Of a stretch of 24,512 nucleotides of DNA, positions 9,633 through 24,512 are shown in pieces (the first letter of the stretch is position 1; each line of letters opens with the position of its first letter). Below the pieces are notes generated by a model, which ran no database searches, was not told the origin of the DNA, and saw nothing but the letters and a program-made list of their open reading frames with translations. The position numbers and the translations under genes are program-made. Origin of the DNA: a virus; the UHGV virus genome UHGV-0105321. One strand, given 5' to 3'.

Positions 9633-9697
9633 TATTCAGGCAGGGCATGGAGCAATACACGGGAATAATTCTGCCACATCTGGAAGAATTTCGCCAG

Positions 9698-9765
9698 CAA
9701 CAACACCAACCGCAGCAGCCTGAAGCCGATTGGGTTAACCCGGGAGATACCGGGACCGTCTGCGG
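9698..9765 (+). repeat. Direct-repeat copy 1 (about 68 bp) duplicating an internal segment of the downstream initiator gene
   Basis: CAACAACACCAACCGCAGCAGCCTGAAGCCGATTGGGTTAACCCGGGAGATACCGGGACCGTCTGCGG recurs at 10441..10521 with few substitutions and a 23-nt insertion. Confidence 0.75.
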
Positions 9766-9795: not shown

Positions 9796-10872
9796 ATGCG
9801 TAATTACGCAACAATTTCACCTCAGTTCTGGTTAGGCGATACAGGGCGAAAACTAAGGAAGTCTGGTCCGGAATGTATGGTAGTGGCGTTGTATATGATG
9901 ACCTCGCCTCATTCCAATATGCTGGGCCTTTATTACCTGCCTGTTTTGTACATTGCTCACGAAACCGGACTTGCTCCTGAAGGGGCTTCTAAGGGGCTTC
10001 AAATGGCTTGCGAGGCTGGTTTTTGCAGCTATGACCATGATTCTGAGGTTGTATGGGTGCATGAAATGGCAGCATGGCAGGTTGGTGAATCGCTGAAACC
10101 TGGCGATAACCGTTGTGCTGGGGTAAGAAATGAATATTCCGCGTTGCTGGAAAATCCTTTTTTATCATCCTTTTATGATAGATATAAGGATGATTTCCAC
10201 CTGGATGTCAGACGTGAATCATGTCGGAAAATTGAAGCCCCTTCAGAGCCCCTTTCAAGCCAAGAACAGGAACAGGAACAGGAAAGGGATAAAACCCTTC
10301 TGGTCCATGGCGAAAAAATCGCCACGGACCCACAGGGGGATTTTTGTCCTGTTCTGACTGAACGTCCAGGACCAGATGGCACGACACCGGAAGCAGATTC
10401 CGGGCGTTGTGTGCAGCAGGTGCTGATCGTCGAACCGGAGCAACAACGCCAACCGCAGCAGCCTGAAGCCGATTCCGCGATGAGCGGGAAGCCGATTGGG
10501 TTAACCCGGGCGATGCCGGGACCGTCTGCGGGACGAGTTGATTATCCTGACGTGTTCGAACGGGTCTGGCGTGAATATCCGCATCGGGCAGGGTCAAACC
10601 CGAAGAAATCCGCGTTCAATGCCTGGAGGGCCAGATTACGCGAAGGGGTGTCACCGGATGTCGTGCTGGATGGCGTGAGGCGTTACGCAAGATACCTGGA
10701 GGCTACCGGGAAAGCGGGAACTGAATTTGTTCAGCAGGCATCGACGTTTTTTGGCCCGAACAGGAATTTCGAAAATCCGTGGTCGCTGCCGAAGGCTGGC
10801 GCAGTCAGCCTGCGTTGCGTGAATCACATTTCTGAACCGGACACCGAAATTCCGCCGGGTTTCAGGGGGTAA
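9796..10872 (+). CDS. Putative replication initiation protein (O position, not lambda O-like in sequence), 358 aa
   Basis: Located between cII and a DnaC-like loader with good ribosome-binding site; contains QEQEQEQE and short reiterated DNA motifs. Function assigned by position only. Confidence 0.55.
   Translation: MRNYATISPQFWLGDTGRKLRKSGPECMVVALYMMTSPHSNMLGLYYLPVLYIAHETGLAPEGASKGLQMACEAGFCSYDHDSEVVWVHEMAAWQVGESLKPGDNRCAGVRNEYSALLENPFLSSFYDRYKDDFHLDVRRESCRKIEAPSEPLSSQEQEQEQERDKTLLVHGEKIATDPQGDFCPVLTERPGPDGTTPEADSGRCVQQVLIVEPEQQRQPQQPEADSAMSGKPIGLTRAMPGPSAGRVDYPDVFERVWREYPHRAGSNPKKSAFNAWRARLREGVSPDVVLDGVRRYARYLEATGKAGTEFVQQASTFFGPNRNFENPWSLPKAGAVSLRCVNHISEPDTEIPPGFRG
10441..10521 (+). repeat. 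Direct-repeat copy 2, inside the initiator coding sequence
   Basis: Matches 9698..9765; contains an internal GAAGCCGATT duplication. Confidence 0.75.
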
Positions 10873-11644: not shown

Positions 11645-11842
11645 ATGGAAACCGTATTGCATGCACTGAAAGCGATGGGAAAAGCCAATTCTGTTGAACT
11701 GGCGGCGCGGCTTGATATCAGCCGTGAAGAAGTTCTCAACGAACTGTGGGAGCTCAAAAAAAATGGCGTTGTTGATAAAACGGGTCACACCTGGTTTCTG
11801 GCTGTCGAAGGTGAAGCCGGGGTACGGAGTATTCCCGTCTGA
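11645..11842 (+). CDS. Small winged-helix-like DNA-binding protein, 65 aa
   Basis: HTH-like segment [35 protein letters not shown] upstream of the ATG. Confidence 0.5.
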
Positions 11843-13707: not shown

Positions 13708-13839
13708 GAGAGTAAACATAACAAATTTGTTATATACATTCAAGGTATGTTGACGACAACACATATCCGGGATTATATTCTTCGCACGCCAGCAAAATCT
13801 GGCGTCGGGATTAGCACCCCGGATATCGAAACGGTGCAT

Positions 13840-13861
13840 AACCGCGCTGGCGGTTTTTTTA
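13840..13861 (+). terminator. Intrinsic terminator (stem AACCGC/GCGGTT, loop GCTG, then T7); tR2-like
   Basis: Short GC hairpin directly followed by TTTTTTT on the plus strand, upstream of the nin region. Confidence 0.5.
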
Positions 13862-14024
13862 TGCGCTAAGCACAGTCACATTCGCGATTTATGGCGGGCT
13901 GTGTGGGGGAGCCGAAAGGCTCGCCGGATGTTTCGACCGGTAGTGCTAACCCCGCACAGTTCGCCACCACGATGATTAGCACCTGAAGGTGGTGAGGTAA
14001 AAATTATCGAAACGCGAGGTCGTT

Positions 14025-14699
14025 ATGACTGTTCAAATCTCTGTCAAAAACCTTTCCCCTGTTACCTATAACCAGATTCCGGTAATCACAACTGAGTTGC
14101 TTGCCCGCCTTTATGGAACAGAAACAATCCGTATACAGCAGAATCACCATGAAAATAAATCTCGGTTTATTGAGGGAAAGCACTTCTTTAAAGCTGTTGG
14201 TGATGAACTCAGAAATTTGCGACTAGTTTTAAACGAGTCGCAAAATGAGGTGAAAATCTCTCCCAAAACCCGCTCGCTCATCCTCTGGACAGAACGAGGC
14301 GCAGCCCGCCACGCAAAAATGCTAGAAACCGATCAGGCGTGGGAAGTGTTCGAAAAACTGGAAGACTGCTATTTCAGCCAGGGAAAAACAGCACCAACCG
14401 AACAGCAGCCGCAGATTCAGCCACAATTCACAGCCGAAGAAATCATCCTCCTTTGCTACATGCAACTCTGGATGGAAAAAGCCCAGGACCTTAGCAAGCA
14501 GCTGTACCCCATAATGAAAGAGCTGAACTCCTCATACACGAACAAGCTGTATGACATTGCGTTTGAGACCATCTACATGGTGACGAAGAACAGAGACGCG
14601 CTACTAAGGGAGGTAACACGTCTCGACATGTCAAGTTCCGTTATCCAGCGGGCCATGCCAATGCTGAAAAGCCTGCGGGCAAGACAATTTGAATTCTGA
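14025..14699 (+). CDS. Hypothetical nin-region protein, 224 aa, possibly antirepressor-like
   Basis: Well-formed ORF followed by a terminator; the N-terminal region weakly resembles phage regulatory/antirepressor N-terminal domains by eye. Confidence 0.45.
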   Translation: MTVQISVKNLSPVTYNQIPVITTELLARLYGTETIRIQQNHHENKSRFIEGKHFFKAVGDELRNLRLVLNESQNEVKISPKTRSLILWTERGAARHAKMLETDQAWEVFEKLEDCYFSQGKTAPTEQQPQIQPQFTAEEIILLCYMQLWMEKAQDLSKQLYPIMKELNSSYTNKLYDIAFETIYMVTKNRDALLREVTRLDMSSSVIQRAMPMLKSLRARQFEF

Positions 14700-17071: not shown

Positions 17072-17231
17072 TGCAAAATATTTTTTGTAAATGCGTTGCT
17101 TTCGAGAAATGAAAGTAGTATGTTTTGTGTATGCTCGGAGCAAAAGCGCACTGAGAAGCGAAAGAGAAATCCTGATTTACCTCGGTCGTCGATAATATTT
17201 AGGATCGGCATACTGGCTAGATTAGGTAAAG

Positions 17232-17260
17232 GCCTCGGCAGAAATGTCGGGGCTTTTTGT
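17232..17260 (+). terminator. Intrinsic terminator (8-bp stem with two G-U pairs, loop AGAAAT, then TTTTTGTTTG)
   Basis: Hairpin 17232..17253 directly followed by a T-run. Confidence 0.5.
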
Positions 17261-17581
17261 TTGCACAACAGGTAAGAGCATTGAACCCGCAGACCTCGTG
17301 GAATTGGTGAAAGGTGTGCGCAGTGCTCTTATCGTTGTGGTGAAGCTCAATGGCGAGCTAGCAGACAGGCGACTGTGAAAATACTAGTCATGTAGCGGAT
17401 CGCCGCGCGTATTGTAATCGGCAGCGCACCGATGGGAGCTGGTTCGATTCCGGCCGCCACAATCCAAACTGAGCCGTAGCCTCTGGGTGTCCTGAATTCA
17501 TCAGTGATAGTTACGCTGCGGCCTTCTACATACGATTTTTGTGAAAAGCGGGTGGCAAGAGGCTGCGAAATTTTTAAATAC

Positions 17582-17804
17582 CTCACAATTCCACAGCTTG
17601 ATGATTGTCTGGCTGCCGGAGAATTTGTTAAAAATTGCATCGCGTGGTGAATCCCCCTCAGCGGCGGGGCATCTGGCAAAGTGTATGATCCAGCGAACAT
17701 GCAAATTCAGTAGCCAGGCTGAATTTACCGGGAGGCACCTGGCACCATGCGACAGACAGAAATTAGGCTATACTTCAGCCCCTCTCCGGAGGGGCTTTTC
17801 TGTG
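17582..17804 (+). repeat. Late-promoter-like unit A: -35 TTGTCT (17605..17610), -10 TAAAAA (17629..17634), conserved hairpin, terminator hairpin 17777..17796 plus T-run
   Basis: Shares block-wise similarity with unit B (18051..18286), including the terminator AGCCCCTCTCCGGAGGGGCU and the motif CACCGGGAGGCACCYGGCACCATGC. Confidence 0.6.
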
Positions 17805-17990
17805 CAGGATGTGTCACAGTTTCCTGAATTCTGAGTACTGTCCTGTTACTCAGGGTGCTATATTTTCTGACGTGATGAAAGTCTGCCGGAAGGCGGAACG
17901 TATCGGAAATGACCCAGTAGAGAAAACGTTGACTCAGATACCGATGCTGAGTTACCGGGAAACCGGCATCACATGACCGCTATCCTTCCA

Positions 17991-18013
17991 GGCTCGCTCC
18001 GGCGGGCCTTTTT
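17991..18013 (+). terminator. Intrinsic terminator (GGCTCGC-TCCG-GCGGGCC followed by TTTTT)
   Basis: 7-bp stem with one G-U pair and a T5 run, between the two repeat units. Confidence 0.45.
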
Positions 18014-18050
18014 ACTGCAGAAAACAGTTTTCCCGTAAAATGCCACGTTA

Positions 18051-18286
18051 CTCACAATTCAGGCTGGCGATTATTGTCTGGCCAGCGGGAAGTTTGTTAA
18101 AAAAATATGGCATGGTGAATCCCCTGTGCGGAGGGGCATATCAGCGACAGGTGTTTGGTCACACCCCTTATCCTTTCTGGTGCGGGTTCAGGTGCTGATA
18201 CTGAACTCACCGGGAGGCACCCGGCACCATGCATGAACGGTACATAGCGCTACTCTCCAGCCCCTCTCCGGAGGGGCTTTCTTGTT
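18051..18286 (+). repeat. Late-promoter-like unit B: -35 TTGTCT (18074..18079), -10 TAAAAA (18098..18103), hairpin, terminator 18259..18286
   Basis: Tandem paralogue of unit A; identical terminator stem; compensatory substitutions in the internal hairpin (CCCCT...AGGGG versus CCCC...GGGG). Confidence 0.6.
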
Positions 18287-18290
18287 GGAT

Positions 18291-18319
18291 AAAAAAAAGC
18301 CCGCGCCGGGAAGCGCGGG
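18291..18319 (-). terminator. Minus-strand intrinsic terminator (stem CCCGCGC/GCGCGGG followed by U8), back-to-back with the unit B terminator
   Basis: A8 run then GC hairpin on the plus strand, which is hairpin plus U8 on the minus strand. Confidence 0.55.
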
Positions 18320-18520
18320 TGGCAAGGAATAAACAACAAAACGTGAAGTGATCAATTTTCAGCTGGCGAATAATACCCGACAGTAATCACTCTGCGCAAC
18401 TGTATGGTCTTTTTCGTATTGCGGGCTGTAGTCATCCTCCTGTTTCTGAACCCTTGTCCATGACTGACGTCAGCCCGCACCTTATCTTGATTGCATACAC
18501 TATCCCTGCCGGGAGGAATA

Positions 18521-18829
18521 ATGGCATTTAAACACTATGACGTGGTCAGGGCATCATCGCCGTCAGACCTCGCAGGAAAACTGACGCAAAAACTGAAGGA
18601 AGGCTGGCAACCCTATGGTAGTCCGATTATCTCAAACGCGGGTTATGGTGCTGAATTTATCCAGGCTATTATGGTTCCGGTGGACGAACGGATGCGAAGA
18701 GCTGGACAACATCCGATCGTAAAACCCACTTTGGTTCATGGGCGCGTCGCGGAATTATTTCCGACCGTCTGGCAACAGCCATTCTTCTGCATGTGGGCAG
18801 AGTGGCAGATTTTGTTTCCGGGAAAGTGA
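18521..18829 (+). CDS. DUF1737-like N-terminal domain ORF (MAFKHYDVV...), about 102 aa as written; probably part of a larger frame-disrupted gene
   Basis: GGGAGGA ribosome-binding site before ATG 18521; N-terminal sequence resembles the DUF1737 domain that I recall at the N-terminus of prophage NanS-p esterases; the ORF runs into an overlapping frame. Confidence 0.5.
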   Translation: MAFKHYDVVRASSPSDLAGKLTQKLKEGWQPYGSPIISNAGYGAEFIQAIMVPVDERMRRAGQHPIVKPTLVHGRVAELFPTVWQQPFFCMWAEWQILFPGK

Positions 18830-19587
18830 CAAAAGCCGCGGTTTCTTCAGGCGGAGGCGTATCGCAACCAGCACAGGAGAGTGGCGATACTCAGCCTGAA
18901 TCCGTTGTCCCGACAAAGATACAGTCAGTGCTGGCTTATGATGCGAATGCGGAAAATGCCGATCTGGCTTCGCAGGGCTGGACGCTGACAGATGTCAAAA
19001 ACACGCTGGTCAGTGACAGTGGTTCAGGTAAAAAAGCCCTTCGTCTTGAAAAACCAGAAAATGGTCTTGCACAGAAAAAGACCTGGAAAGTATCGCACGC
19101 AATTGATGCCGGTAAGGGGAAGGAGCTGTTCGATAACGGCGGTGAAATCACGCTGCGCTTTAAAATCCCCGATGATGTATCTCTCAATGCTTCTGCAAAT
19201 CAATATTCTGCGGGTATTTACTGGCGCGGTAGTGGATGGCCGGGAGCGGAATCAGAGGAGGGTTATATTGCGGCCTTCTATCTGCAGACTGATAAAACAA
19301 ACATCAATGTGATGTATCATGCAAACACCACATCACAGCGGCTTGGTAGTTATGGTCCGTTCGATCACGACTGGCACACGCTGACTTTCCGCTTCCCGGG
19401 TGGTGGCTCGCTGAACGTCACGCCGGTGCTTGATAATGCAGCAGGAAAACCGTTTACGCTGACCAGATGGACGAATGCAGCCTTTGAGGCCAACGCGCTG
19501 GCAATTACGGATATTACCGGAAATGCGGCAACTTACCCTGTGCTGATTGAAAGTCTTACTGTTGGTGTGAATGCCGTAGCAGCATAA
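18793..19587 (+). CDS. Beta-rich putative carbohydrate-binding-like domain ORF, 264 aa, with no in-frame ATG until far downstream; likely continuation of the DUF1737 gene after a frameshift
   Basis: Long ORF with protein-like composition (Gly/Thr/Asn-rich); track start is a GTG; overlaps the upstream frame over 18793..18829. Confidence 0.5.
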   Translation: MGRVADFVSGKVTKAAVSSGGGVSQPAQESGDTQPESVVPTKIQSVLAYDANAENADLASQGWTLTDVKNTLVSDSGSGKKALRLEKPENGLAQKKTWKVSHAIDAGKGKELFDNGGEITLRFKIPDDVSLNASANQYSAGIYWRGSGWPGAESEEGYIAAFYLQTDKTNINVMYHANTTSQRLGSYGPFDHDWHTLTFRFPGGGSLNVTPVLDNAAGKPFTLTRWTNAAFEANALAITDITGNAATYPVLIESLTVGVNAVAA

Positions 19588-19727
19588 CAGACGAAAAAAA
19601 CCGCCAGCAACAGGAATGGAGACTGGCGGAGGTAATCCCAATGGAGAATCTAACGAAAGGATGCTTTCGACATCAATCATTTCTAAATGAAAACAGTTCT
19701 CATTGTCAACAGTAACGGTAATAAACC

Positions 19728-19922
19728 ATGACATTCATCAACCAGTTAATGCTGTACTTCTGTACGGTGGTCTGTGTGTTGTATCTGCTTTCGGGTGGAT
19801 ACAGGGCAGTACGCGACTTCTGGCGCAGACAGATTGACAAAAGGGCCGCTGAGAAAATCAGCGCCACTCAGTCAGCCGGAGCAAAAACAGAAGCCCCACT
19901 CATTCCGGAACAACCTTCTTAA
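19728..19922 (+). CDS. Small membrane protein, 64 aa (one transmembrane helix then a basic segment)
   Basis: Hydrophobic stretch LMLYFCTVVCVLYLLSGGY; weak ribosome-binding site. Confidence 0.4.
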   Translation: MTFINQLMLYFCTVVCVLYLLSGGYRAVRDFWRRQIDKRAAEKISATQSAGAKTEAPLIPEQPS

Positions 19923-19947
19923 TAACCCCTTTCAACGAGAAAATCTC

Positions 19948-20238
19948 ATGACAGATATAAAACAACTGGTCACTGCTGAGGCAGTGAAGGAAGTCATTCG
20001 CTCTGAAGAAGTCAGAAGCGTCCTGAAACAAAAACTCCGCCAGAATCTGGAAGAGCGTCTTGATGCAGAAGTGGATTCAATTCTGGATGAATTGCTTGGT
20101 GCACAGCCGGAACCATCCCCGGAACTGCTTCCGGAACCACAGGCGGAAGATGTCACCACGGAAAATGGTGATATTCAGCCGGAGTCACCGGTGACGGATA
20201 TGACAGACACACAACCCGAACCGGGCACAATGCTGTAA
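19948..20238 (+). CDS. Acidic hypothetical protein, about 96 aa from ATG 19948
   Basis: ORF ends just before a strong terminator at 20250..20281; weak ribosome-binding site; Glu/Pro-rich C-terminus. Confidence 0.4.
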   Translation: MTDIKQLVTAEAVKEVIRSEEVRSVLKQKLRQNLEERLDAEVDSILDELLGAQPEPSPELLPEPQAEDVTTENGDIQPESPVTDMTDTQPEPGTML

Positions 20239-20249
20239 CGGCGGGGCAG

Positions 20250-20281
20250 GGCCATCAGTAAAACACTGATGGCCTTTTTTA
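20250..20281 (+). terminator. Strong intrinsic terminator (9-bp stem GGCCATCAG/CTGATGGCC, 7-nt loop, then T6)
   Basis: Perfect inverted repeat 20250..20258 / 20266..20274 followed by TTTTTT. Confidence 0.7.
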
Positions 20282-22281
20282 TTTCCGGTAGCACAGGTCT
20301 GTCGGGGCGGGGATATGTATCAGATGGAAAAAATATCAACGGGCATATCCAGGTGGCAACCTCATTCCGTTCAGGTACGGTGCAGCGCCTGCATATCTCA
20401 GAGCACGGCAAAATTTGCGCAAAATATCCGGCTAAGGCGAAAGAACTGCGAACCGGTACACTTAATGCCGTCTCTGATGAGTGCATTATTTTTGATGAAT
20501 CCACTGCTGAAGGTGTGGGTGGCGATTTTTACGAGATGAGTACCGTTGATGGTGTTCTGGGTATGGAGGCCAAAACGCGGACTGATCTGTTGGTGATATC
20601 AGATGATCCTGATGATGAAACAGAAAAACTGGCTGAAGCTATTAATGCTGAATTTGCCGATGCTTGCCGCCTTGGAAATATGAATAAAGCCCGTTCTGAT
20701 GCCTATGCGGAACAAATCAAAGCGGGGCTCAGCTGGGTGGAGGTCAGACGGAACAGCGATCCGTTCGGGCCTGAGTTTAAGGTGTCTACTGTCAGCCGGA
20801 ATGAAGTGTTCTGGGACTGGCTCAGCCGGGAGGCTGATTTAAGTGACTGCCGCTGGCTGATGCGCCGCCGCTGGATGGATACCGATGAGGCAAAAGCCAC
20901 ATTTCCGGGAATGGCTCAGGTTATCGATTATGCCATTGATGACTGGCGTGGTTTTGTCGATACCACGGTTACTGAAGGCCAGCCCAGTCCGTTGATGAGT
21001 GCATGGGAAGAGTATCAGTCATGGGATCGACAGCAGAACGAATGGCTTCAGCGTGAACGCCGTCGTGTGCTGCTTCAGGTGGTTTATTACCGTACATTCG
21101 AGCGTCTTCCGGTGATTGAACTCAGTAATGGACGGGTGGTGGCCTTTGATAAAAATAATCTGATGCATGCGGTGGCTGTGGCATCCGGGCGGGTGCAGGT
21201 GAGAGTCGGGCGGGTAAGTCGTATTCGTGAAGCCTGGTTTGTGGGACCGCACTTTATTGTGGATCGCCCCTGCAGTGCGCCGCAGGGGATGTTCCCGCTG
21301 GTTCCCTTCTGGGGATACCGGAAGGATAAAACCGGGGAGCCTTACGGGCTGATTTCCCGGGCCATTCCGGCACAGGATGAGGTGAATTTTCGTCGTATAA
21401 AACTGACGTGGTTGCTTCAGGCCAAACGCGTGATTATGGACGAGGATGCCACCCAGTTGTCAGACAACGATCTGATGGAGCAGATCGAGCGTCCGGATGG
21501 CATTATTAAACTGAATCCGGCCCGAAAAAATCAGAAAAGCGTTGCTGATGTTTTCCGGGTTGAACAGGATTTTCAGGTTGCCAGCCAGCAGTTTCAGGTC
21601 ATGCAGGAGTCGGAAAAACTTATCCAGGACACGATGGGGGTTTATTCCGCATTTCTCGGGCAGGATTCAAATGCATCGTCCGGCGTGGCGATCAGCAACC
21701 TGGTGGAGCAGGGAGCCACAACCCTTGCCGAAATCAACGATAACTACCAGTTTGCCTGCCAGCAGGTGGGAAGGCTGTTGCTCGCTTATCTTCTTGATGA
21801 CCTGAAAAAGCGGCGTAATCATGCGGTGGTGATTAATCGCGATGATCGTCAGCGTCGCCAGACCATTGTCCTCAATGCTGAAGGTGATAATGGTGAACTG
21901 ACCAATGATATTTCAAGGTTAAATACACATATTGCGCTGGCTCCTGTTCAGCAGACACCGGCGTTTAAGGCACAGCTTGCACAGAGAATGTCAGAGGTTA
22001 TTCAGGGGCTGCCGCCTCAGGTGCAGGCTGTTGTGCTCGATCTGTGGGTTAATCTTCTGGATGTGCCGCAGAAACAGGAATTTGTCGAACGTATTCGTGC
22101 GGCGCTGGGGACGCCAAAATCACCGGATGAGATGACTCCGGAAGAGCAGGAAGCGGCAGCACAACAGCAGGCGCTGGAGCAACAGCAGGCAGAACTTCAG
22201 ATGCGCGAAATGACAGGCCGGGTGCGTGAGGCATTTCGCCGTCGTGTTGCGGAGACTGAACAGCATGGCGGAACTGACTGA
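20269..22281 (+). CDS. Large late-region structural protein, up to 670 aa, with portal-like character (tentative); true start unresolved
   Basis: Uninterrupted frame ending in a Gln/Ala/Glu-rich helical tail (…EEQEAAAQQQALEQQQAELQ…) as seen in portal proteins; the annotated 5' end overlaps the terminator hairpin and no in-frame start has a good ribosome-binding site. Confidence 0.5.
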   Translation: MAFFISGSTGLSGRGYVSDGKNINGHIQVATSFRSGTVQRLHISEHGKICAKYPAKAKELRTGTLNAVSDECIIFDESTAEGVGGDFYEMSTVDGVLGMEAKTRTDLLVISDDPDDETEKLAEAINAEFADACRLGNMNKARSDAYAEQIKAGLSWVEVRRNSDPFGPEFKVSTVSRNEVFWDWLSREADLSDCRWLMRRRWMDTDEAKATFPGMAQVIDYAIDDWRGFVDTTVTEGQPSPLMSAWEEYQSWDRQQNEWLQRERRRVLLQVVYYRTFERLPVIELSNGRVVAFDKNNLMHAVAVASGRVQVRVGRVSRIREAWFVGPHFIVDRPCSAPQGMFPLVPFWGYRKDKTGEPYGLISRAIPAQDEVNFRRIKLTWLLQAKRVIMDEDATQLSDNDLMEQIERPDGIIKLNPARKNQKSVADVFRVEQDFQVASQQFQVMQESEKLIQDTMGVYSAFLGQDSNASSGVAISNLVEQGATTLAEINDNYQFACQQVGRLLLAYLLDDLKKRRNHAVVINRDDRQRRQTIVLNAEGDNGELTNDISRLNTHIALAPVQQTPAFKAQLAQRMSEVIQGLPPQVQAVVLDLWVNLLDVPQKQEFVERIRAALGTPKSPDEMTPEEQEAAAQQQALEQQQAELQMREMTGRVREAFRRRVAETEQHGGTD

Positions 22282-22828
22282 TTTTTTACCGTATGTCCGT
22301 CGCCATATCAGTGGTCCGCTGAACATTATGATGACGGATGCGTTATCCATGTCGGCAGTGGCATTCTGCCGTCAGTCCCTGTTGTGCCGCCGTGAAGCCA
22401 CGCTGTCACCGCCAGCCGGAGAGGACTGTGTGCTGCCATATGACGCGGAGAATGAAGAGTGCGTACATATTATTCGTATCCTCGCTGACGGGCGTGAGCT
22501 TTTTGCCGGTCATGATGTGGAAATCCGCCCGGGGCGGGTAATGCATTTTGCCTGTTCGCCCGGAGAGGTGAGTGTGCTTTATGCCGTTGCTCCGAAAGCA
22601 GGGAGCCGTCAGGTGCAGGATGAACTGCGGGCATGGTCTGAAGAAGTGGCTGCAGGGGCGCTTGAACGGTTGTTCATGCAGACCGGGGTTTCATGGTCAG
22701 ACCCGTCGCGCGCACAGTATTTCTCTGTGCTGTTTTCTGAGGGTATCCGTCGGGCATATCGCGACACACTGGCGACAAGTCCGTACTCCTCATACCGCAA
22801 TCCTGTCCGCAGACAAAGGTTTTACTGA
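22265..22828 (+). CDS. Hypothetical late protein, about 187 aa from ATG 22265
   Basis: GGAG upstream; overlaps the end of the large ORF by 17 nt; stop overlaps the next start (TGATG). Confidence 0.55.
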   Translation: MAELTDFLPYVRRHISGPLNIMMTDALSMSAVAFCRQSLLCRREATLSPPAGEDCVLPYDAENEECVHIIRILADGRELFAGHDVEIRPGRVMHFACSPGEVSVLYAVAPKAGSRQVQDELRAWSEEVAAGALERLFMQTGVSWSDPSRAQYFSVLFSEGIRRAYRDTLATSPYSSYRNPVRRQRFY

Positions 22829-23478
22829 TGACGACGATTACTGAAATCATCGGACGAGTGAACACGCAACTGGTTGACCCGATGATGGTGCGCTGGCCTC
22901 TGGCTGAGCTGTGTGATTATTACAATGATGCTGTGCGGGCGGTGATTCTGGCAAGGCCGGATGCAGGCGCAAGTCTGGAGACGCTGAATTGTGTTCCTGG
23001 TGCACGTCAGACTTTGCCTGATGGCGCAATACAGCTTCTTGACGTGATATGCCTCAGCGATGGCAGTGCTATAAAACCGCAATCCCGTGAGGTGCTTGAT
23101 GCACAGTATCCCGACTGGCACATGCTGAGGGGGAAACCGGAATGCTTTATCAGCAGTGACCTTGCCCCGCGCGTGTTCTGGCTGTTTCCGGCACCGGAGG
23201 AGGCTGTGAGTGTTGATGCTGTGGTCAGCCGCATTCCGGAGGCGGTGTATGTTCTGACGCAGGATGATGACACGCCTGTACCGCTGGAAGAGGCTTATGT
23301 TAACCCGCTGGTTGACTGGATGTTGTTTCGTGCATTCAGCAAGGATGCAGCCGGTGGTGCAGAGTCAGGACTGGCAGCACAACATTATCAGAGTTTTGTT
23401 GAGCAGCTCGGGATTAAACAGGGTGCAGACAGTGCATTGTCTGCCCGCAAGAAGGTGTTTAACGGAGGTGGAATGTGA
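22828..23478 (+). CDS. Hypothetical late protein, 216 aa
   Basis: ATG coupled to the upstream stop; stop overlaps the GTG start of the tail fiber gene. Confidence 0.6.
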
Positions 23479-24512
23479 GTGTTGTTGTTTCGGGGACGCT
23501 GAAATCTCCTGATGGTGAGGCGATATCAGGCGCAAATATTACCCTGACGGCGCTGACAGTTTCACCGGATGCGCTCAGCGGCACCAGTGCGTCAGCAGTG
23601 ACTCGTGACGGCGGGTATTACGGAATGACGCTGGAGCCGGGGGAGTATGCGGTTTCTGTGACGGTGAAAGGGAAGACTGCTGTCTACGGACGTGTGCGTA
23701 TTGAGGGGACTGAAAGTACGGTGACGCTCAATATGCTGTTACGCCGCAGTCTTGTTGAGGTGAGCATACCCGGAGAACTGCTGACAGATTTCCGGCAGAT
23801 ACAGAACAATGTGGCGGATGACCTTGCCACGATTCGTCGTCTGAACGAAGACACGGCGGTGAAAAATAATCAGGCTTCACAGTCGAAGGAAAGCGCTGCT
23901 GCCAGTGCGAAGACTGCATCAGAAAGCGCGAAGGCTGCGACCAGCAAAGCGACGGAGTCTGCACAAAAAGCCAGTGAGGCTGCAGAGGCGGCGACCCGGG
24001 CAGGTGAGTCTGAAAAGGCAGCGGCAGCTGACGCTAAAGAGGCCAGACAACATGCTGAAACCGCCAGAGTGGCTCAGGAGGCCGCCGGAGACGTTCTTAA
24101 ACGTGCTGAGGCTGCTACAGTTAGTGCTGAAGAAGCCAGACGTATGGCTGAGAATGCACGAGGACCTAAAGGCGATACAGGGCCGAAAGGTGATGCTGGT
24201 CCTCGTGGTGAAACAGGTCCGGCGGGTCCGCGTGGGGAGAAAGGTGAGCAGGGAGAGCGCGGACCTCAGGGCATACCGGGCCAGAAAGGTGATACAGGAG
24301 AACGGGGACCTCAGGGAGTGCAGGGGCCAGCTGGCCCACGTGGTGCGACCGGGCCACAGGGAGCAATGGGGCCGCGTGGTGAAACCGGGGCCAGAGGCGA
24401 AAAAGGAGACCCGGGGGGGCCTCAGGGACCAAAGGGGGATGCTGGTCCGAGAGGTGAGCCGGGGCCGAAAGGTGACACCGGCCCACGTGGAGAGGCCGGA
24501 CCACCCGGACCA
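23475..24512 (+). CDS. stf: Side tail fiber (Stf-like) protein, N-terminal 346 codons; continues beyond the window
   Basis: GTG start after GGAGGTG; N-terminus [27 protein letters not shown]... resembles lambda Stf (MAVKISGVLKDGTGKPV...); Ala/Ser/Glu-rich coiled segment, then collagen-like Gly-X-Y repeats from about 24166 to the window end. Confidence 0.85.

Follow-up and report, generated by a model that had tools for sequence, protein, structure and literature searches.

The window analysed here, a stretch of 24,512 nucleotides (nt) from the virus genome UHGV-0105321, carries a 670-codon open reading frame (ORF) that is very probably a chimeric pseudogene, lying in a defective lambdoid prophage of the Sepvirinae type (933W/POCJ13-like) from a gut Escherichia coli lineage. 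The ORF combines an internal segment of terL, the gene for the large terminase subunit, with most of a portal gene and the end of a third gene. An earlier reading of the sequence alone (the original prediction) had proposed a deletion junction or fusion leaving a 5′-truncated gene without its own start, and alignment to intact relatives supports this proposal. The intact prophages used for blastn were those of strain cM8a, strain G6/7 and E. coli SCU-104. The breakpoints were located to the base by inspection against the SCU-104 prophage, whose coordinates are given below in its own numbering. The ORF and its parts are:

20269..22281, plus strand: chimeric ORF, consisting of 26 junk codons, 65 TerL codons, 561 portal codons and 18 phrog_482 codons
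20347..20541, plus strand: internal terL fragment, codons 154-218, in the TerL frame (ORF residues 27-91)
20542..22224, plus strand: portal fragment, codons 78-638 of 714 (ORF residues 92-652)
22225..22281, plus strand: end of the phrog_482 gene (SCU-104 26822-27283), last 18 codons and stop (ORF residues 653-670)

Composition of the chimeric ORF

The first 26 codons comprise the 3′ arm and T-tract of a transcription terminator (read as MAFFIS), a spacer containing the Shine-Dalgarno (SD) sequence of a holin gene, and holin codons 1-11 in the wrong frame. They are stop-free by chance, with a probability of about 0.3 at 61/64 per codon by our own arithmetic, and therefore the big frame reaches the terminator.

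ORF residues 27-91 are identical to residues 154-218 of TerL (POCJ13 gp48; WP_000143995, 568 residues; phrog_2/phrog_26724) in 65 of 65 positions in the protein alignment with SCU-104. At the DNA level, the fragment matches SCU-104 20530-20730 over 201 nt with 0 mismatches and 1 alignment gap (99.5%), the gap being an edge effect at the 5′ end and not a frameshift. Phage records that match this fragment are annotated as terminase large subunit. The first 91 residues have no Pfam match; residues 25-87 match only phrog_26724, at its positions 128-190 of 192, and the intact TerL matches the same family over residues 21-214. The stretch CIIFDESTAEG, earlier taken as a sign that the first 90 codons look protein-like, corresponds to TerL residues about 196-206 and is terminase, not portal; its IIFDES part is presumably Walker-B-like, in our own reading of the motif. 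These codons are indeed real coding sequence, but they derive from an internal piece of TerL and not from the portal N-terminus. A TerL protein unites ATPase and nuclease in one chain of roughly 570 residues. The chimera keeps only 65 of 568, without the upstream ATPase part (with its Walker-A-like segment) and without the whole nuclease half.

ORF residues 92-652 correspond to residues 78-638 of the Sepvirinae (Stx-like) portal protein (POCJ13 gp49; E. coli WP_032298132, 714 residues; solved relative PDB 8jov), with 1684 nt of DNA 100% identical to SCU-104 22008-23691 in blastn. The Pfam profile PF16510 (P22_portal) matches residues 92-653 (E=7.5e-110, 368.6 bits), and a match to phrog_156 (portal) was also found. 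The chimera covers positions 54-585 of the 594 in the PF16510 profile, versus 7-594 for the intact SCU-104 protein. Comparing the N-terminal 90 codons and the rest separately with protein families, a check suggested with the original prediction, thus gave phrog_26724 for the former and PF16510 from residue 92 onwards for the latter. Neither of the two findings named beforehand as refuting the original prediction was obtained: the N-terminal segment does not align as the genuine N-terminus of a known family, and the homologues have 714 residues, not 670. The 670-residue protein clusters with these 714-residue portals, a form present on at least 1000 contigs.

In comparison with the intact portal, the first 77 and the last 76 residues are gone in a clade with a length of about 714 residues, and foreign sequence stands at both ends. 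The description of a 5′-truncated gene was therefore correct as to the 5′ loss and incomplete otherwise: the gene is also 3′-truncated, and the final 18 codons of a different gene follow it in frame. The native portal start (SCU-104 21778), which in the relatives is an ATG with a ribosome-binding site (RBS) overlapping the terL stop, has been deleted. The terminase, scaffold and major capsid genes that would be its partners lay within the deleted SCU-104 segments 17258-20531, 20731-22012 and 23692-27226. Judged from these comparisons, the chimera is homologous to the P22-type portal family but would not be a functional member of it, nor is it a terminase. In addition, the terL-portal joint cuts a conserved N-terminal portal block shared with the solved portal 8jov (NLIAP|TVDGVLG), which makes folding doubtful.

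Directly downstream lies an intact gene; its overlap with the end of the chimera is exactly the one it has with the phrog_482 gene in intact relatives:

22265..22828, plus strand: intact virion structural gene, 187 residues, phrog_437; the exact protein is found on 865 contigs

Deletion joints relative to intact prophages

The ancestral gene order is seen in the free phage POCJ13 (Sepvirinae, Diegovirus), in which DUF826, holin and lysozyme genes are followed, with other genes between, by an Rz-like spanin gene, small terminase, large terminase and portal (2145 bp) genes and a major head protein gene. The order from DUF826, holin and lysozyme to terS, terL and portal (714 residues) is also intact in the cM8a and SCU-104 prophages. 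The window is collinear with the intact prophages at 99-100% identity (99.3-100% for SCU-104), interrupted by gaps of 907, 3274, 1282 and 3535 bp on which the cM8a and G6/7 prophages agree. With a further deletion to the left, the joints relative to SCU-104 are:

J0, 11823-11824: microhomology TA; about 790 bp lost, from the 3′ part of DUF1627 to the 5′ part of DUF977; out of frame
J1, 18667-18669: microhomology TAT; 907 bp lost inside a SASA-family sialate O-acetylesterase (nanS-like) gene; out of frame
J2, 20346-20347: microhomology TA; 3274 bp lost (SCU-104 17258-20531), from holin codon 12 to terL nt 459; out of frame
J3, 20541-20542: microhomology TA; 1282 bp lost, terL codons 219-568 and portal codons 1-77; in frame
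J4, 22222-22224: microhomology GTG; 3535 bp lost, from portal codon 639 to codon 135 of the phrog_482 gene; in frame

These five clean joints span about 10.5 kb of the window, and each of the deletions, 0.8-3.5 kb in size, has a microhomology of 2-3 bp. J0 fuses codon ~60 of DUF1627 to DUF977. J1 leaves two ORFs, 18521-18829 (a DUF1737 stub) and 18826-19587 (a DUF6645 fragment), in place of a protein that has 657 residues in the relatives. Lost at J2 are the rest of the holin gene, the lysozyme gene, small ORFs, the spanin/lysis protein gene, terS and the first 459 nt of terL. Lost at J4 are portal codons 639-714, a 335-residue gene, the N4-gp56-type major capsid gene, a 130-residue gene and most of the 153-residue phrog_482 gene. 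The single breakpoint implied by the original prediction thus turns out to be two joints within the interval concerned, holin to terL (20346-47) and terL to portal (20541-42).

In a megablast search with positions 18000-22400, none of 5426 complete E. coli genomes covered the whole segment. Its left part, up to about 20350, matches SASA esterase, DUF1378, DUF826 and class II holin sequences in these genomes, and its right part, from about 20346, matches terminase large subunit and portal protein sequences.

The terminator and the holin start

The region just upstream of J2, where the frame begins, contains the following features:

19948..20238, plus strand: DUF826 gene, 96 residues (PF05696, E=8e-25), the last intact gene ahead of the terminator
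20248..20282, plus strand: native intrinsic terminator with a 12-bp stem, a 5-nt loop and a T-run, between the DUF826 and holin genes
20304..20347, plus strand: class II holin RBS GGGGCGGGGA, ATG 20315 and codons 1-11 (MYQMEKISTGI), the sole remnant of the lysis cassette
20315..20539, plus strand: 74-codon ORF read from the holin ATG, holin codons 1-11 and then out-of-frame terL

The terminator stem (20248-20276) has the arms AGGGCCATCAGT and ACTGATGGCCTT with 6 GC pairs and is followed by TTTTTTATTT. Its RNA fold has an energy of -22.6 kcal/mol (z = -4.3 versus shuffles), and none of 200 shuffles was as stable. Positions 20248-20282 therefore show what is expected of a Rho-independent terminator, a G+C-rich hairpin with a U-tract and a stability above chance. 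The same sequence is present in the intact prophage at SCU-104 17158-17192, and its position after the DUF826 gene and before the holin gene is conserved in intact relatives; a DUF826 protein is annotated at the same place in the G6/7 and SCU-104 prophages and in POCJ13.

Hairpin, T-tract, spacer, SD sequence and ATG 20315 are equal base for base to SCU-104 17158-17257, where the same region precedes the class II holin gene (MYQMEKISTGIAYG...). At 20304-20317, the SD and ATG of the holin gene lie 38 nt past the terminator tail, and the left-hand alignment to the G6/7 and SCU-104 prophages stops after the first 33 nt of the class II holin gene annotated there. Both the terminator and the holin start region are thus native and not products of deletion. 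It had been suggested that the remainder of the gene was joined to the terminator; what actually happened is that terL nt 460 was joined to holin codon 11.

Start codons, expression and function

The 670-codon frame is already open from 20248, and ATG 20269, its first in-frame ATG, sits in the 3′ arm of the terminator hairpin, so that the reported overlap of the 5′ end with a strong terminator is real. ATG codons 20536 and 20563 had been regarded as the first in the frame; strictly, ATG 20269 precedes both. Further in-frame starts are GTG 20353, 20380 and 20515 and the ATG codons 20536 and 20563, with more further on. The duplex energies of the in-frame starts with the anti-SD sequence range from +0.7 to -4.9 kcal/mol. 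The best value, that of ATG 20536, stems from a GGUGG located 14-18 nt upstream, which is too distant. For comparison, the energies are -7.0 kcal/mol at the holin start 20315, -8.1 at the native terL start, -5.5 at the native portal start and -8.3 at the capsid start. With weak SD pairing at all in-frame starts and good pairing at these real ones, the frame is without a credible start, as had been proposed, and this holds for the ATG and GTG codons after the hairpin in particular.

In a collection of 15 billion proteins, only the version starting at 20269 is present; versions starting at 20353, 20536, 20563 or 20680, and the 74-residue product of the holin start, are absent from it. The presence of the 20269 version reflects the choice of a gene caller and is not evidence for a start.

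Late (Q-antiterminated) transcripts would still cross the terminator. Ribosomes would then load at the holin site, in a frame that is +1 relative to that of the chimera, and make a 74-residue out-of-frame peptide, so that the chimera itself would be made little or not at all. Since it has neither a start nor partner genes, it most probably has no function. The earlier expectation that the truncated gene is expressed poorly or not at all agrees with this reasoning from the missing start and the missing partner genes only. With the holin, endolysin, spanin, terminase and head genes lost, the prophage is predicted to be unable to lyse or package.

Carrier contigs

The exact 670-residue protein is found on 4-5 public contigs (ENA and Logan) from independent gut metagenome assemblies. 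Carriers are contig k127_80997 of ERZ917765, from a human gut metagenome (PRJEB12123), scaffold_64 of ERZ28596679 (170,736 bp, with its end at the end of the window) and a Logan contig of SRR29490183. These contigs are 100% identical to the window over an overlap of 4.3 to 14.2 kb. A 102-residue product specific to J1 is found on 8-9 contigs, including one NCBI draft genome contig, and a 65-residue product specific to J0 on 5 contigs.

A sister contig, L008 (ERZ15609685 NODE_2526; SPAdes, coverage 27), contains J1, J2 and J3 exactly as in the window. It is without J0, its DUF977 gene being still intact, and J0 is therefore younger than J1-J3 or arose independently. In place of J4 it carries another joint, J4′, in which SCU-104 23693 is joined to 28063 with the microhomology TGGC, giving a 655-residue product. 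At this joint (L008:10700-10730) the portal is fused 836 bp further downstream than at J4 (versus window 22222-23061). The left breakpoints of J4 and J4′ coincide within 2 bp, which may reflect either repeated breakage at one site or a secondary deletion that set out exactly from the old joint.

Other collections gave no matches. By the coverage logic of the 18000-22400 search, J2 is absent from all 5426 complete E. coli genomes. With J1, J3 and J4 combined in one 360-nt query, the best cover in complete E. coli genomes was 18%, equal to half of one joint, and no intermediates were revealed. Exact J2 had 0 matches in GTDB species representatives (a weak negative with one genome per species) and in IMG/VR, exact J3 had 0 in JGI metagenomes and IMG/VR, and exact J1 and J4 had 0 in IMG/VR, so that these collections supply no intermediates either. 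In the phage collection, 20200-20700 had matches only to the 200-nt terL island, and no record spanned J2 or J3.

As a separate observation on these contigs, the tail-fibre gene of the window has an in-frame length difference of 45 bp (15 codons) from SCU-104 at 24460-24467, within its collagen-like GXY repeats. The repeats are probably the reason why every carrier contig breaks off within about 100 bp past this region.

Alternative explanations

That short-read metagenome assemblers produced the joints by merging several related prophages is extremely unlikely. A single E. coli genome may indeed contain many related lambdoid prophages (up to 15 matching places), and the joints are in no complete genome. 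Against this stand the same four joints, 100% identical, in a MEGAHIT k127 contig, a 170-kb scaffolded ENA assembly, a Logan contig and a SPAdes node, and the presence of J1 in an NCBI draft genome contig as well. With only 2-3 bp shared at the joints, a length far short of the k-mers of any assembler, assemblers could not have created them via repeats. The joints are real DNA and not an assembly artefact, a conclusion drawn at the contig level from identical joints across projects and assemblers. Even less probable, to the point of being negligible, is a genuine gene with a start of a non-canonical kind or a novel N-terminal domain, or one that ribosomes from the holin start would reach by a programmed -1 frameshift at the GAAAAAAT run. 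Consistent with it are the long open frame, the A6 run in holin codons 5-7 and the +1 offset of the holin frame. The frameshift was rejected as G_GAA_AAA does not have the X_XXY_YYZ form of a slippery heptamer, and intact holin genes, which need no shift, contain the run natively. More generally, the N-terminal segment is the internal TerL piece described above, the native family members start 77 codons upstream, and there is no SD at any in-frame start. The alignments already refute this reading.

A relic that is still expressed is very unlikely, if less so than the readings just discussed. Ribosomes loading at the holin site would stop at TGA 20537-20539 of the 74-codon ORF and restart at the overlapping ATG 20536 (ATGA), making a low level of a 581-residue portal without its N-terminal 77 and C-terminal 76 residues; such a product could poison portal rings assembled by related phages upon superinfection. 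In favour of this, the SD and ATG of the holin gene are intact, the overlap is present in the sequence, the portal part is free of mutations in comparison with the intact gene, and J3 and J4 are in frame. Yet the ATGA at 20536-20539 merely represents the TerL codons Glu-Met-Ser and was not made by deletion, and 100% identity is equally expected from a recent deletion. Moreover, J2 is out of frame with the holin, which speaks against selection for expression, the break in the portal N-terminal block makes folding doubtful, and the L008 lineage has already altered the 3′ fusion. A chimeric pseudogene in a defective prophage thus remains our preferred interpretation, and nothing contradicts it as to the anatomy of the ORF; its weak points are mechanism and expression. 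Several observations weigh against it: all carriers are short-read metagenome or draft contigs, two in-frame joints (about 1/9 by chance) together with the ATGA overlap leave room for some expression, microhomologies of 2-3 bp are at the low end for slipped mispairing, and the TA found at four of the five joints is not predicted by plain end-joining.

Origin of the deletions

Several microhomology-mediated deletions account for the loss of the lysis cassette and terS, of most of terL, of the two ends of the portal gene and of the genes for scaffold and capsid. J3 and J4 fell in frame by accident. Since the retained DNA is still 99.5-100% identical to that of intact relatives and two of the joints are in frame, the 670-codon frame stays open. 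The likely process is RecA-independent illegitimate recombination, either alternative end-joining (A-EJ) after double-strand breaks or slipped or template-switch replication. The deletions probably arose stepwise, in no fewer than three events, given that L008 is without J0 and carries J4′ in place of J4. J1-J3 could be one single event, but one catastrophic event as the sole explanation for all joints was rejected on the same evidence from L008.

The microhomologies themselves indicate microhomology-assisted joining, since the probability of at least 2 bp is 0.16 per random joint and all four of J1-J4 reach it (about 6e-4). In E. coli, A-EJ is RecBCD-dependent, yields kilobase deletions and uses microhomologies of 1-9 nt, or 1-3 nt after Cas9 cuts, versus 2-3 nt here (10.1101/605246). 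For the window, this mechanism is deduced from the scars only. Transposon-like excision was rejected because the deleted segments have no terminal inverted repeats and there is no insertion sequence (IS) in this region of the window. Restriction and ligation with a TA overhang was also rejected: the parental tetranucleotides GTAA, CTAT, ATAG, GTAA / TTAC, GTAT, GTAT, CTAC share no palindromic site.

All of J0, J1, J2 and J3 contain TA in their microhomology. TA is the rarest dinucleotide in the SCU-104 prophage (3.7%), and in 400,000 simulated random deletions on it TA occurred in 2.9% of microhomologies of 2-3 bp. The probability of TA in four of five joints is about 3e-6, or about 5e-5 when any dinucleotide is allowed for. 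To our knowledge, no TA preference has been described for A-EJ. One possibility, unlikely in our view and concerning only the mechanism of origin and not the identity of the ORF, is that the deletions are products of one TA-preferring enzymatic process, for example a transposase or nuclease that targets TA, or a 2-bp crossover of the serine-recombinase type at pseudo-sites. Such a process would be consistent with GTA|ACCG as the left site of both J0 and J3 and with the left breakpoint shared by J4 and J4′. On the other hand, the pattern was spotted post hoc with n = 5, J4 and J4′ are not TA, the eight parental sites have no common consensus, the deleted segments lack the inverted repeats mentioned above, and no candidate enzyme was identified in the window. 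It is similarly improbable that serial excisions by a TA-preferring DNA-breaking or recombining activity disarm a Stx-like prophage, with the truncated portal secondarily expressed via the holin RBS and an ATGA restart and interfering with related phages. The TA bias, the shared GTA|ACCG and the J4/J4′ breakpoint are unexplained oddities that we flag and do not build upon; microhomology-assisted joining remains the preferred account of the joints.

Other features of the window

Two diverged copies of the small RNA STnc100 (Rfam RF02076, 139 and 130 bits) are located at 17612-17805 and 18081-18289, between the putative Q gene and the esterase gene. This corresponds to the late-promoter region in which Stx phages carry transfer RNA (tRNA) genes and stx; no tRNA genes were found in the window. 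Rfam matches to c4-a1b1, isrK and C4 antisense RNA (the P1/P7-type immunity RNA module) at 13773-13971 lie just upstream of an ORF6N/P22_AR_C antirepressor-like gene (14025-14699). Repeats of about 30-45 bp at 9696-9765 and 10439-10531 in the O-like replication gene match each other, show another copy number or spacing than in the SCU-104 and ES5 prophages, and look like an iteron or origin region. Finally, a 1.1-kb segment at 6652-7742 (ORFs 6660-7280 and 7277-7765, minus strand) takes the place of a 1.7-kb Ser/Thr kinase module of the ES5 prophage, which is otherwise 98.8% identical. This swap is ordinary lambdoid mosaicism and not a deletion joint.

Relation to known prophage decay

Judged from annotations alone, regulatory, immunity, replication, nin and some tail genes appear to be retained in this prophage. 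DLP12, Rac and Qin are K-12 examples of decaying or cryptic lambdoid prophages. As in such decaying or grounded prophages, whose deletional decay is well described, lysis and morphogenesis genes have been lost by internal deletions, leaving truncated and fused late-gene remnants (PMC6379469). Unlike in prophages of the DLP12/Rac/Qin type, the decay is very recent (flanks 99-100% identical), no IS is involved, and the joints show a TA bias. The chimera adds a further case to a known kind, the chimeric pseudogenes that prophage erosion leaves behind.

The 670-residue protein in public collections, annotated by automated callers as a P22-type portal, is thus a three-gene fusion relic and should serve neither as a portal sequence nor to argue that a prophage is intact. 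The window offers a base-resolved snapshot of a very recent prophage inactivation, and the sister contigs show that the process is ongoing. The TA bias is the only element that may repay systematic follow-up; if it held for other cases as well, it would suggest that E. coli prophages are eroded by a specific mechanism.

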